Positions 22,106 to 63,878 of a stretch of 64,000 nt of DNA are shown piece after piece; the first letter of the stretch is position 1; the number at the start of each line of letters is the position of its first letter. This DNA is from Eledone cirrhosa (lineage: Eukaryota). A program made the translations under genes and the position numbers. Location of the stretch: NCBI GenBank assembly GCA_964016885.1, contig OZ024765.1, forward strand, positions 1,736,001-1,800,000. The letters are read 5' to 3'. The notes beneath the pieces are model-generated. The model ran no database searches and was not told the origin of the DNA. It worked only from the letters and a program-made list of their open reading frames with translations.

Positions 22106-22662
22106 TGTGTTTTTTTTTGTCGTGACACCTACACGACCTCATTTGTTTTGGCCTGGATATATATAATAATAATGAAATTATTGTGTACAGTGCTCAGGTG
22201 CACTACAACTCATCAAAGGTGCATGTATAGTACATAGAATAATGTACAAATGTCAGGAAAATGAACAGTGTATGAGTCATGATATAATAACAACAACAAT
22301 AATGAAATATTGTGTACAGTGCTCAGGTGCACCACAACTCATCAAAAAAAGTGCATGTACAGTACATAGGGCAATGCACAAACATCAGTAAAATGAACAG
22401 TGCACGAGTCATGATACACACATGTGTGCATGTGTATGGAAGGGGTACATCAGGTGTAGTTTTGGCGTATTTCGGGAAGCATGAGTGTCTTAAAGGATGC
22501 AGTGTCTCGGCAGCTAACAATTGACGCAGGCAGTTTGTTCCATGCTTCAGCAACTCTGAGCGTGAAAAAATGTCTACGAAAGTCATGGGAGCTGTGCTGT
22601 TTTCTGATCATATATATATATACGATATTAACAAATGGAAACTATATTTATAAAACCATATT

Positions 22663-22727
22663 TATTTCATTATACATATTTCAAGGACACCAAGTTAAAT
22701 TATGGTGTGCTTTCATCAGATAAAATA
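22663..22727 (-). ncRNA. Minimal type-I hammerhead ribozyme motif
   Basis: Reverse complement TATTTTAT-CTGATGA-AAGCACACCA(taatttaact)TGGTGTCCTT-GAAA-TATGTA-TA^ATGAAATA. Confidence 0.8.
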
Positions 22728-23454
22728 TAATATAGATCAGTTTTATAAATAAATATTGACATACCCTTAGAGAATGCAACCATTGCTGTTGGAAGCTCCC
22801 TCTCATTCTTTAAGGGTATGTCAATATTTATTTATAAAACTGCTCTATATTATATTTTATCTGATGAGGGTGGTGGATTGGCAGTATCGGTGGAGGGTCG
22901 GACGCCATGCTTTCCAGCATAGTTATGTCCCTTTACGATCTGAGTTCAAATCCCGCCGAGGTTCACTTTGCCTTTCATCCTTACGGGGTCGATAAAATAA
23001 AGTACCAGTAATGTACTGGGCATTTACTGGCCTTGTGCCAAAAGTAGAAACAGTTATATGTATGGCCAGTGCCTTTGGTTGGATGTTTTTTTTTGTGTCA
23101 CACTTTTCTGTATAACTGTTGTTTACTCTGGACCTGATGTATTGAGTGCCTTGTCATTGCCTCAAATGAATCGAAGATGTACTTGTTGTACAACAGCTAA
23201 AACTTCGATTTATACCTATTATATATATATATATATATATATATTGGGTATATGTTGGTTGTTTACCGACACCTCAGTATGCAGATTGGAGCACTCGACG
23301 AAGTACGCAGGTTGGTTTGTTTACTCCGGAGTATGATTCCAGTTCCTCGGAGGAATAACTACACACCCAGGAGCTGGACATATCGATGTATTGACGGAGT
23401 AAAACACACTTCAACAACATGTGTACCTGTCTTTTCCACACCAATTCGGACTGC

Positions 23455-23858: not shown

Positions 23859-24120
23859 AGGCGCATGGCTTAGTGGTTAGAGCATTGGGCTTGCAATCGA
23901 AAGGTTTTGAGTTCAATTCTCGGACCGGGTCATGTGTTGTTTCCTTGAGCAAGACACTTTATTTCACGTTGCTCCAGTTTACTCAGCTGTAGAAATGAGA
24001 TGAAGAGGTACCGGCCTGCCCACCCAGCCAGAGAGATGGCGTTATCTTATGGCTAAAACATGACGTGCTGTGACTAGCAGCGCCGAATCGACGCCCGACA
24101 GACTGGTCGGTGAAGGTGAT
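23859..24120 (+). mobile_element. tRNA-derived SINE family B (CORE/V-like); other copies 5875-6017(-), 11590-11737(-), 19880-20070, 25479-25567, 39720-39830, 50524-50736
   Basis: tggcttagtggttagag A-box, gagttcaattc B-box, tccttgagcaagacactttatttc central domain. Confidence 0.88.
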
Positions 24121-59222: not shown

Positions 59223-59536
59223 CCCTGCGATCAGTTATGAGGAATCTTGTATTCTCAGTCTACACGTAGAGTGCTTTTCCTACTATTACATCATGGTTAA
59301 CTATACGGCATAACCAGTTCTATCCAGTGGTGAAACACCAACTTCAATGAATATATATATATATACACACACACATATATATATCGTCATCGTTTAACAT
59401 CCATCTTCCATGCTAGCATTGGTTAGATGGGTTTGTCCCATTTAGAGGCAAGTTGGGTCGGGCGACCGTGTCTCGCTCATATAGGACTGTTTCTGGTTAG
59501 TTTTCTACGGCTGGATGACATTCCTAGTGCTGACCA

Positions 59537-61190
59537 CATTTACAGTGTGTACTGGGAGCCTTTTGTTGTGACACCTACATGGCCACTTTACAGTGTGTAC
59601 TGGGAGCCTTTTGTTGTGACACCTACATGGCCACTTTACAGTGTGTACTGGGAGCCTTTTGTTGTGACACCTACACGACCACTTTACAGTGTGTACTGGG
59701 AGCCTTTTGTTGTGACACCTACATGGCCACTTTACAGTGTGTACTGGGAGCCTTTTGTTGTGACACCTACAAGGCCACTTTACAGTGTGTACTGGGAGCC
59801 TTTTGTTGTGACACCTACATGGCCACTTTACAGTGTGTACTGGGAGCCTTTTGTTGTGACACCTACATGGCCACTTTACAGTGTGTACTGGGTGCCTTAT
59901 GTTGTGACACCTACAAGGCCACTTTACAGTGTGTACTGGGAGCCTTTTGTTGTGACACCTACATGGCCACTTTACAGTGTGTACTGGGAGCCTTATGTTG
60001 TGACACCTACAAGGCCACTTTACAGTGTGTACTGGGAGCCTTTTGTTGTGACACCTACATGGCCACTTTACAGTGTGTACTGGGAGCCTTTTGTTGTGAC
60101 ACCTACATGGCCACTTTACAGTGTGTACTGGGTGCCTTATGTTGTGACACCTACAAGGCCACTTTACAGTGTGTACTGGGAGCCTTTTGTTGTGACACCT
60201 ACATGGCCACTTTACAGTGTGTACTGGGAGCCTTATGTTGTGACACCTACAAGGCCACTTTACAGTGTGTACTGGGAGCCTTTTGTTGTGACACCTACAT
60301 GGCCACTTTACAGTGTGTACTGGGAGCCTTTTGTTGTGACACCTACATGGCCACTTTACAGTGTGTACTGGGAGCCTTTTGTTGTGACACCTACATGGCC
60401 ACTTTACAGTGTGTACTGGGTGCCTTATGTTGTGACACCTACAAGGCCACTTTACAGTGTGTACTGGGAGCCTTTTGTTGTGACACCTACACGGCCACTT
60501 TACAGTGTGTACTGGGAGCCTTATGTTGTGACACCTACAAGGCCACTTTACAGTGTGTACTGGGAGCCTTTTGTTGTGACACCTACAAGGCCACTTTACA
60601 GTGTGTACTGGGTGCCTTATGTTGTGACACCTACAAGGCCACTTTACAGTGTGTACTGGGAGCCTTTTGTTGTGACACCTACATGGCCACTTTACAGTGT
60701 GTACTGGGTGCCTTATGTTGTGACACCTACAAGGCCACTTTACAGTGTGTACTGGGTGCCTTATGTTGTGACACCTACAAGGCCACTTTACAGTGTGTAC
60801 TGGGAGCCTTTTGTTGTGACACCTACATGGCCACTTTACAGTGTGTACTGGGAGCCTTTTGTTGTGACACCTACAAGGCCACTTTACAGTGTGTACTGGG
60901 TGCCTTATGTTGTGACACCTACAAGGCCACTTTACAGTGTGTACTGGGAGCCTTTTGTTGTGACACCTACATGGCCACTTTACAGTGTGTACTGGGAGCC
61001 TTTTGTTGTGACACCTACAAGGCCACTTTACAGTGTGTACTGGGAGCCTTTTGTTGTGACACCTACATGGCCACTTTACAGTGTGTACTGGGAGCCTTTT
61101 GTTGTGACACCTACATGGCCACTTTACAGTGTGGACTGGGAGCCTTTTGTTGTGACACCTACATGGCCACTTTACAGTGTGTACTGGGTG
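59537..61190. repeat. 48-bp minisatellite (~34 copies) inside an RTE-tailed element
   Basis: tttacagtgtgtactgggagccttttgttgtgacacctacatggccac periodicity; flanks continue as the retroelement. Confidence 0.95.
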
Positions 61191-61442
61191 TTCTGTGGTA
61201 CCAACATAATTTTACAGAGAAAGGGTGGTGTGGGCAGAAGTGTGAAGATGGAGTAGGGGTAGTGGGTTGGAGTGTATATTGGGTTAAGAGGTGCCTACTG
61301 ACTGTAGGTTTAAGTATGAGTTATTTGTTTTGTTGATTATTCAACAAAGTTAATTTATAACAGTTTAGAAGCACTCAACAGTATTTCTGGATTATAATAT
61401 CAATGATATTAAATAAATAGAAACTATATATAAAACCATATT

Positions 61443-61503
61443 TATTCTATTATATATATTTCAAGGGTACCAAGACTTTGGTACGCTTTCATCAGATAAA
61501 ATA
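61443..61503 (-). ncRNA. Minimal type-I hammerhead ribozyme motif (mirror arm)
   Basis: Reverse complement TATTTTAT-CTGATGA-AAGCGTACCAAagtcTTGGTACCCTT-GAAA-TATATA-TA^ATAGAATA. Confidence 0.85.
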
Positions 61504-61621
61504 CAAAGTTTGTTTTATAAATATTTGACATATCCAGGAAGAAGATCTTAACGGTTATCCAGGAAAAACTTGAACCGTTAAGATCTTCCTGGCTATGTCA
61601 ATATTTATAAAACGAACTTTG

Positions 61622-61682
61622 TATTTTATCTGATGAGAGCGTACCAAAGTTTTGGTACCCTTGAAATATATATAATAGAATA
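61622..61682 (+). ncRNA. Minimal type-I hammerhead ribozyme motif
   Basis: TATTTTAT-CTGATGA-[GAGCGTACCAA agtt TTGGTACCCTT]-GAAA-TATATA-TA^ATAGAATA; intact core, stems I and II pair, palindromic stem III. Confidence 0.85.
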
Positions 61683-61931
61683 AATATGGTTTTATAAATA
61701 TAGTTTCTATTTATTTAATATCATTGATATATATATATAGATGTATATATAGATGTATATATAGATGTATATATAGATGTATATATATATAGATGTATAT
61801 ATAGATGTATATATATATAGATGTATATATATATAGATGTATATATATATAGATGTATATATATATAGATGTATATATATATAGATGTATATATATATAG
61901 ATGTATATATATATAGATGTATATATATATG

Positions 61932-61984
<53 letters not shown>

Positions 61985-62695
61985 GTATATGTATATATAT
62001 ATATATGTATATATATATGTATATATATAGATGTATATATATATGTATATATATATATGTATATATATAGATGTATATATATATAGATGTATATATATAT
62101 GTATATATATAGATGTATATATATATGTATATATATATATAGATGTATATATATATATATATATATAGATGTATATATATATATATATATATATAGATGT
62201 ATATATATATGTATATATATATATATGTATATATATATAGATGTATATATATATGTATATATATATATATGTATATATATATAGATGTATATATAGATGT
62301 ATATATATATAGATGTATATATAGATGTATATATATATAGATGTATATATATATGTATATATATATAGATGTATATATAGATGTATATATATATAGATGT
62401 ATATATAGATGTATATATATATAGATGTATATATAGATATATATATATATGTATATATATATAGATGTATATATATACAGATGTATATATATATGTATAT
62501 ATATATAGATGTATATATATATGTATATATATATAGATGTATATATATATGTATATATATATAGATGTATATATATATGTATATATATATAGATGTATAT
62601 ATATATGTATATATATATAGATGTATATATATATGTATATATATATAGATATGTGTATATATATATATATGTATATATATATATGTATATATATG

Positions 62696-62770
<75 letters not shown>

Positions 62771-63030
62771 GTATATACACATGCTAACTATCCTGCCAGG
62801 TGATTCTTTAGACTGTCTTGTCCCTCTACACCTTTTTTCTTGCTTCATGTACCACCTTCCATAACATCAAGTGGTGTTTCACATTTCTTCACTTTTCCTC
62901 TTCCATAGTGCAAGTCATGTTGTTGTTGTTGTTGTCGTGGTTTTTGGTAATATGACAAACTAGCATGGCCTGACTGAATTATAAGAGACAAAATATATGT
63001 TGAGGTGTTGTTCTTATCGATGTTGTTTAA

Positions 63031-63878
63031 CCCCTTTCTTACCATATTTACCTGGTGTTTGGCACATAACTTAACAAAGGTTCTTACATAAAATTAGGAT
63101 GGAAGGTTTTAGCAAACTATAAACATTTTAACCCCTTTGTTATCATATTTATTTAGTGTTTGGAACATAACTTAACAAAGGTTCTTACATAAAATTAGGA
63201 TGGAAGGTTTTAGCAAACTATAAACATTTTAACCCCTTTGTTATCATATTTATCTAGTGTTTGGAATATAACTTAACAAAGGTTCTTACATAAAATTAGG
63301 ATGGAAGGTTTTAGCAAACTATAAACATTTTAACCCCTTTGTTATCATATTTATCTAGTGTTTGGAATATAACTTAACAAAGGTTCTTACATAAAATTAG
63401 GATGGAAGCTTTTAGCAAACTATAAACATTTTAACCCCTTTGTTATCATATTTATCTAGTGTTTGGAATATAACTTAACAAAGGTTCTTACATAAAATAT
63501 GGATGGAAGCTTTTAGCAAACTATAAACATTTTAACCCCTTTGTTATCATATTTATCTAGTGTTTGGAACATAACTTAACAAAAGTTCTTACATAAAATT
63601 AGGATGGAAGGTTTTAGCAAACTATAAACATTTTAACCCCTTTGTTATCATATTTATCTAGTGTTTGGAACATAACTTAACAAAGGTTCTTCTATAAAAT
63701 TATGTTGGAGGGATTTACTAAAAGTATTAATTATTTCATTAGTAAGATAGTAACTTAAAGAAAGGTTCTTATATAAAATTATGTTGGATGATTTTAATTT
63801 AAATTGGAAACCTTTAAAATGGGTGGTTTTATTTCATAGAACCAGAGCTGGTTTGGGCCCAGGTTGGTAACTAAAGGA
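63031..63878. mobile_element. Second TTAA-flanked piggyBac-like MITE with 101-bp tandem array (~6.5 copies); related ends at 15790-15904(-), 33310-33466, 56915-56965
   Basis: TTAA-CCCCTTT..TACC ... GGTAAC.AAAGG-TTAA; 101-bp periodicity (63070, 63171, 63272...). Confidence 0.8.

Follow-up and report, generated by a model that had tools for sequence, protein, structure and literature searches.

What is an inverted repeat that carries one hammerhead ribozyme motif on each strand: a mobile unit in its own right, a hairpin kept for what its RNA does, or the product of another element? The question is raised by a palindrome of about 330 bp in a 64,000-nucleotide stretch of Eledone cirrhosa DNA (GenBank assembly GCA_964016885.1, contig OZ024765.1, positions 1,736,001 to 1,800,000 of the forward strand). 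This whole stretch is referred to as the window, and positions are given in its coordinates. A reading made from the sequence alone had proposed a small non-autonomous element that has a self-cleavage site whichever strand is transcribed and that may act as a folding switch or a dsRNA substrate. Published systems are compared below from parts of the cited papers.

The locus and its hammerhead motifs

Both motifs were recovered by a scan of the whole window. CUGAUGA lies at 61630 on the plus strand and at 61495 on the minus strand, in each case with stem I fully paired (8 of 8), GAAA and an AUA triplet, the latter ending at 61674 and 61451, respectively. The 8-bp stem I, the core elements and the predicted cleavage after these two positions were thereby confirmed as first described. 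The arm alignment (61393-61556 with 61573-61735; 94% identity) and the scan bear out an inverted repeat with one type-I hammerhead per arm on opposite strands, and both arms hold the hammerhead core CUGANGA, GAAA and NUH with stems I to III. The extent originally given, 61397..61730, covers a real palindrome and misses the left end of the insertion, which starts about 80 bp further left, at ~61316, with a tail of ~81 bp on the left arm (Table 1). This tail, absent from the sequence-only reading, runs on into the 5' region and the open reading frame (ORF) in the tandem copy L056; upstream of the right-arm sequence, other copies continue without interruption into 3' UTR and ORF. The left and right arms overlap by 1 nt at the junction (61556). 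Ten pairs of the distal stem I extension are present in the single-arm MFE structure, and the right hammerhead sequence is the commonest variant of the family (19/257).

Table 1. Features of the fold-back insertion in window coordinates; +1 denotes the putative transcription start
Feature	Position	Strand	Basis
Penelope "tail" (bounded by the two outer end points; the following unit's 5' region)	61316..61396	-	82-86% match to tails of other copies
Left arm, tail-bearing pseudo-LTR, about +18 to +174	61397..61556	-	
Type-I hammerhead, A10.1-U11.1, predicted cleavage after 61451	61443..61503	-	Motif scan; family covariation
Right arm, tail-less pseudo-LTR, +3 to about +174, ending in the (TA)n target	61556..61727	+	
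Native hairpin at the 5' end of the pseudo-LTR RNA, immediately internal to the putative start site	61556..61595	+	-16.7 kcal/mol in natural copy L016
Predicted outer continuation of stem I flanking the right hammerhead, pairing 61601-61613 to 61689-61701	61601..61701	+	By eye
Type-I hammerhead, G10.1-U11.1, predicted cleavage after 61674	61622..61682	+	Motif scan
(TA)-rich microsatellite, typical insertion target of the family	61728..62777	.	(TA)n at copy ends

Two structural details required correction. Stem II has the 11 positions claimed for it, of which 10 are paired and one is a C-C mismatch, and it is closed by G-U or A-U instead of the canonical G10.1-C11.1. Stem III is self-complementary, as claimed, and its palindrome is the 8-mer from A15.1 to U16.1, not TATATA. 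Self-complementarity, as a dimer-forming helix requires, was found for stem III in 240 of 257 cases across subfamilies, three main 8-mers accounting for 152, 58 and 25 of the 257. Together with a predicted pair probability of 0.0005 for stem III in the monomer, this supports a dimer-type hammerhead, for which the 8-bp helix is predicted to contribute only -3.2 kcal/mol.

When the Rfam models were applied, as had been suggested for verification, no hammerhead match was obtained at the gathering score or at E values up to 10; at both thresholds there were only chance hairpin matches to miRNA models. The ribozyme assignment is therefore based on the motif and on covariation. For the latter, 14 variants were used, the author's choice out of 23 clusters. 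Paired states occupy 98.3% of cells, and 5 of 5 counted stem II pairs changed on both sides. The covariation score was reached by 0 of 500 shuffles, a value that should not be read as a probability since the sequences are related. Stem II thus covaries across subfamily variants; a lack of covariation or core conservation among copies, together with a lack of cleavage, had been named as grounds for abandoning the ribozyme. Core conservation figures are biased by motif selection and were not taken as proof of selection.

Penelope hammerheads as described in PMC4209133 are likewise of type I, with a long stem II, a short palindromic stem III and weak, dimer-dependent cleavage, and that paper also reports opposite-strand pairs, the dual hammerheads of Schistosoma lying 100-700 bp apart. 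The present motifs differ from those in the described part of that work by lacking G10.1-C11.1, by a C-pyrimidine mismatch conserved at position four of stem II and by a stem I of 8 bp with a distal helix predicted beyond it. In all main subfamilies stem II consists of three pairs, the conserved C-C or C-U mismatch and then the remaining stem; the mismatch is possibly a tertiary contact with stem I.

A third hammerhead, from a sister subfamily, was noted at 22719 on the minus strand in a second fold-back insertion (22620-22877), and its stem II differs from that of the main locus by compensatory changes. The partner arm is interrupted just after its CUGAUGA by SINE-like sequence. A tRNA-like match (33 bits) at 23866-23923 is likely a SINE head.

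A Penelope-like parent family

The genome-wide copy search identified the arm as a dispersed repeat with 1,675 candidates, the best 30 of which match at 96-100%. A 15-mer spanning stem I and core occurs exactly 45,251 times in the genome, compared with 7 times for its reversed control. In longer copies the arm is the end of a ~1.1-kb 3' UTR downstream of an ORF with RT and GIY-YIG motifs, which supports the earlier suggestion of a link to Penelope-like elements. That linkage was seen by motif in other copies; the window copy itself has no ORF, and no window ORF near the locus belongs to the element. Because the arms are the ends of an ORF-bearing element, and the window junction recurs in no other of 300 fetched loci, the description as a small non-autonomous element is not supported.

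Translations of natural copies contain RWR, DKT, YRDD, CxCX5C, VIY-YIG (GIY-YIG-like, with no CCHH), CxxC and CxH. SDKT is present in 4 of the 5 copies that cover its region and RWR in 4 of 4, with RWR or RWK in relatives. The CxCX5C linker, the absence of CCHH and the CxxC and CxH motifs around conserved E and N were all read from the translations of L053, L054 and L055. Long relatives number 533 at E ≤ 1e-10, the best named one being from Argonauta hians (45%). The Pfam RT and GIY-YIG models gave matches below cut-off only (E 0.014, and E 0.012 on a relative), no solved structure was matched in a PDB search with the element protein, and none of the 60 loci examined has an intact full-length ORF. 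The unit measures ~3.6 kb, and hammerheads in tandem copies are spaced 3.5-3.8 kb apart. Pseudo-LTRs are arranged in tandem (L056, L097, L171) or inverted (L051, L064); L056 has the textbook layout of inverted copy, pseudo-LTR, ORF, pseudo-LTR and tail. Copy ends show the preference for insertion into (TA)n.

These properties are close to those of the Hydra clade, for which PMC8557442 describes a C-terminal GIY-YIG without CCHH, DKT, CxCX5C, CxxC and CxH, (TA)n targets and a hammerhead near the 3' end. By motif, the present family has DKT for DKG, CxCX5C, no CCHH, CxxC, CxH and (TA)n, and resembles Penelope-13_HM and Hydra-1_Obim, for example, in ORF motifs, targets and 3'-end hammerhead. It is longer, at ~3.5-3.7 kb with the ~1.1-kb 3' UTR, whereas Hydra elements are generally <3 kb, a length that is a tendency in the source and not a strict criterion. 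It also differs in having RWR for RWK, a longer tail (~90-95 nt against 30-40), a copy number in the tens of thousands, and a hammerhead sequence unlike the one listed for Hydra-1_Obim in the part of PMC8557442 covered. Judged by these motifs, the family is a high-copy Penelope-like retrotransposon of Hydra-clade character.

The palindrome is accordingly a real feature of a new family with an already known structure, and not a new element or a switch. The layouts of L051 and L056 are as in Craig et al. Fig. 2 (PMC8557442). That paper describes 5'-truncated inverted copies and one-sided tails, and its entry for Penelope-13_HM gives a hammerhead on each strand together with an inverted copy truncated at the 5' end. 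Similarly, insertions in Adineta vaga (PMC3846280) have head-to-head pseudo-LTRs, a tail on only one of them, and TATA and Initiator-like TCACT motifs in the pseudo-LTR, all of which recur here. What makes the family informative is that PMC8557442 counts how tandem and inverted Penelope structures arise among the unsolved questions, and the copy statistics bear on it; the locus itself is ordinary.

Three further observations concern the longer copies. ORFs of L051-L055 have an asparagine-rich stretch before the CxCX5C linker, comparable to the N-rich inserts of Adineta Penelope described in PMC3846280. On the minus strand of L055, positions 327-3061 carry long ORFs that belong to an unrelated non-LTR retrotransposon and, read by eye, contain endonuclease-like and RT-like sequence. 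At the start of the tail, for example in L002, L111, L113 and L114, a short hairpin-forming motif persists in subfamilies with otherwise dissimilar tails; it is a candidate protein-binding or priming signal.

End points of the copies and the origin of the palindrome

Back-to-back pairs with both 15-mers exact number 1,073 at gaps of 64-94 nt, 2,324 at 95-125 nt, 1,809 at 126-156 nt and 101 at 200-230 nt, with 0 in controls for all gap classes. At least 5,206 pairs therefore exist at gaps of 64-156 nt, the counts covering the listed gap classes, and ~23% of the 45,251 hammerhead sites, or about a quarter, fall in short pairs of this described kind. Such abundance and similar size, in the thousands, could suggest a retrozyme- or MITE-like non-autonomous element that moves as a unit with one ribozyme per strand, as could a centre that recurs at a 118-nt gap in one other subfamily. 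We consider this highly improbable: 43 of 43 centres differ in the window's subfamily, in keeping with the unique window junction, pair gaps among the fetched loci spread from 45 nt to 3.9 kb, 4 of 6 pairs with the recurring centre have arms closest to each other, and the predicted duplex masks the ribozymes. A MITE or fold-back DNA element is likewise disfavoured by the differing centres together with unequal outer ends.

Non-LTR retrozymes were also considered. According to the available part of bioRxiv 10.64898/2026.07.22.740005, these are tandem arrays with a type-I hammerhead derived from a Penelope pseudo-LTR, and the locus resembles them in this origin and in having no ORF. Their arrays run head to tail, whereas here a single head-to-head pair was probably built at insertion; 45 of 60 adjacent hammerhead pairs are back to back (11 are on the same strand, 2 of these <300 nt apart), which does not agree with a head-to-tail array.

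The subfamily with the 118-nt gap (L112, L118, L174-L179) has a self-complementary 5' end and many palindromes at that same gap. Its stem III palindrome is GC-rich, with a predicted dimer energy of -10.5 compared with -3.2 kcal/mol.

The 5' ends were characterized in a run of 96 sites, taken without selection from a single contig, of which 83 could be scored. Between 12 nt inside and 3 nt outside the A of an Initiator-like motif lie 28 of the 83, with 10 exactly on the A; 2 end 4-40 nt outside, 31 run further and 22 stop earlier. Note that the start site was picked after sight of this sample. Depending on subfamily, 56-82 nt separate the motif from the hammerhead, and one subfamily has a TATA box ~30 nt upstream of the motif; Schostak et al. 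2008 assign the promoter to the pseudo-LTR. The base before +1 is G 71 times and A 47 times (p = 1e-10), although A is twice as common as G, and the native base is C or T in 94 of 95 cases. Such a G excess is as a copied cap would give; among 30 G cases checked, 12 could be partner-templated and 15 gave no resolution. Starts at the hammerhead cleavage site number 6 of 170, compared with ~6.6 expected, and with no run-off at this site the RNA templates appear to be uncleaved. Peaks of starts at +1, +31 and +41 are inflated by selection and a query indel, and were excluded as evidence. A 3' splice site at the junction (pyrimidine tract and CAG) was rejected because the 5' ends are concentrated ~8 nt upstream of it and what recurs across subfamilies is the Initiator-like motif and not the AG. 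A sigma-70 scan, irrelevant to a eukaryote, returned 5 sites compared with 4.6 by chance.

At their 3' ends, copies stop at two preferred points, about +174 and about +270, which delimit the tail. After 11 of 72 distinct back-to-back pairs had been dropped as unclassified, exactly one tail was found in 58 of 61 (p = 1.6e-14). Copies starting at +1 (n = 59) include 48 with an adjacent inverted partner and 50 that are tail-less. Partners of the tail-less +1 arms carry the tail end in 33 of 41 cases, and partners of tailed +1 arms are without it in 7 of 7. Eleven of the 41 partners consist only of tail sequence that is absent from the other arm, 3 of these 11 being neighbours and probably one event.

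These end points argue that the palindrome in the window is probably a short head-to-head insertion of a hammerhead-bearing Penelope-like end, made from two cDNAs on what is likely one capped RNA, with its ribozymes predicted to be silenced. Reconstructed from genomic copies, the sequence of events would start with the ~3.6-kb RT and GIY-YIG element whose ends form the arms. Its RNA would begin ~70 nt upstream of the hammerhead, at the Initiator-like site, and would be copied without prior cleavage. Two cDNAs would then be made, one primed from each end of the cut (TA)n target: the first from +174, here reaching +3, and the second from the tail end, displacing its way to about +18. The palindrome would result when the 3' ends of the two cDNAs were joined through 1 nt of microhomology, and both arms would contain a hammerhead only because it sits between the start site and the priming sites. 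The window copy fits a one-RNA origin less cleanly, on account of differences between its arms, including two family polymorphisms, and of a divergent tail. The arms differ by 4 substitutions and several indels; they have in common one minor variant found in 8 of 229 arms.

The window tail (61316-61396) matches tails of another subfamily (L189, L207) at 84-86% and those of its own at 82-85%, which is unusually divergent. The arms are 94-98% like their family, unlike the tail, and no (TA)n lies beyond the tail.

Self-priming was weighed against this reading. A first cDNA, or an antisense RNA (Arkhipova et al. 2013), would fold back and copy itself, and trimming of one arm by the endonuclease would leave the one-sided tail. 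This was proposed in PMC3846280, and several results are compatible with it: the junction hot spot coincides with a native hairpin, on which L011 and L022 turn exactly, and most pair junctions have short overlaps. Paired arms also share rare variants, with 108 minor variants in common in 47 pairs compared with 26 ± 5 in 5,000 shuffles, although gene conversion between arms, or an origin in sister source copies, could account for these as well. A fold-back copy cannot hold sequence that its template lacks, and the 11 of 41 partners made up of tail sequence alone therefore fit two cDNAs better. Arms reaching the start site are tail-less in 50 of 59 copies, and either arm may be the longer (the tail-less one 13 times, the tailed one 8 times, with 10 ties, among the 31 of 47 pairs that could be resolved). 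An antisense template, moreover, predicts neither ends at a sense Initiator nor a G excess. We therefore regard self-priming as unlikely here. In the covered part of PMC3846280 it is proposed from few copies, whereas the copy statistics of the present family favour two cDNAs.

Biochemical work on PAc, a Poseidon element, agrees with the two-cDNA reading. In vitro (PMC11167929), two internal RT start sites delimit the tail, the target is AT-rich, both target strands are cut and extended, and hammerhead cleavage is dispensable. PAc belongs to another clade, and in the described part of that study the two start sites are not linked to the two arms of inverted insertions; a model assigning two start sites to two target ends was not found in the non-subscription literature searched. 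Whether Penelope inverted insertions in general arise by such double-ended priming, with one tail-delimiting start site for each target end on the same capped, uncleaved RNA, we judge to be evenly balanced. By the same reading, the thousands of double-hammerhead palindromes may or may not, with equal weight on either side, be joined run-off products ending at the transcription start. Double-ended priming, if true, would replace self-priming and give one rule for the one-sided tail, the head-to-head orientation and the palindrome size; for the PAc system it predicts that, on a single RNA, each target strand is extended from a start site of its own. The copies also point to a promoter position and an uncleaved RNA template, which bears on the role of Penelope hammerheads.

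Predicted folding of the inserted palindrome

RNA of 61316-61730 folds at -240.8 kcal/mol (z = -30.9), and 0 of 100 shuffles were as good. Forcing stems I and II at the expense of the duplex carries a predicted cost of 83 kcal/mol on the plus strand and 77 kcal/mol on the minus strand. Self-cleavage of whichever strand is transcribed is thus not supported, because the antisense arm always comes first and the duplex is predicted to be 77-83 kcal/mol more stable than the ribozyme fold. Moreover, two ribozymes on opposite strands cannot dimerise in cis. Folding calculations accordingly predict that the fold-back silences both window ribozymes, and that cleavage would be confined to RNA whose start lies within the junction, where it would proceed in trans. 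A dimer formed between the two pseudo-LTRs is the likely working form of the hammerhead in the parent element.

Read-through RNA would form a duplex of ~160 bp without cleavage. Should transcription pass through the locus, a dsRNA substrate may result. Nothing points to the suggested folding switch. That the insertion was kept as a regulatory hairpin (a source of dsRNA, editing or small RNA, or a cleavage switch) is a very doubtful proposition. The very stable fold is in its favour, and cephalopods edit dsRNA heavily. The arms, however, have drifted to 94% identity, the copy is one among thousands, and no gene context was found around the palindrome, which sits between a minisatellite and a microsatellite. 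If transcribed, the >5,000 long hairpins of the family would be a large source of dsRNA in this genome.

The minisatellite has a 48-bp period (34.5 copies) and lies within another dispersed repeat (59534-61188), and a 101-bp tandem array (6.9 copies) occupies 63026-63717.
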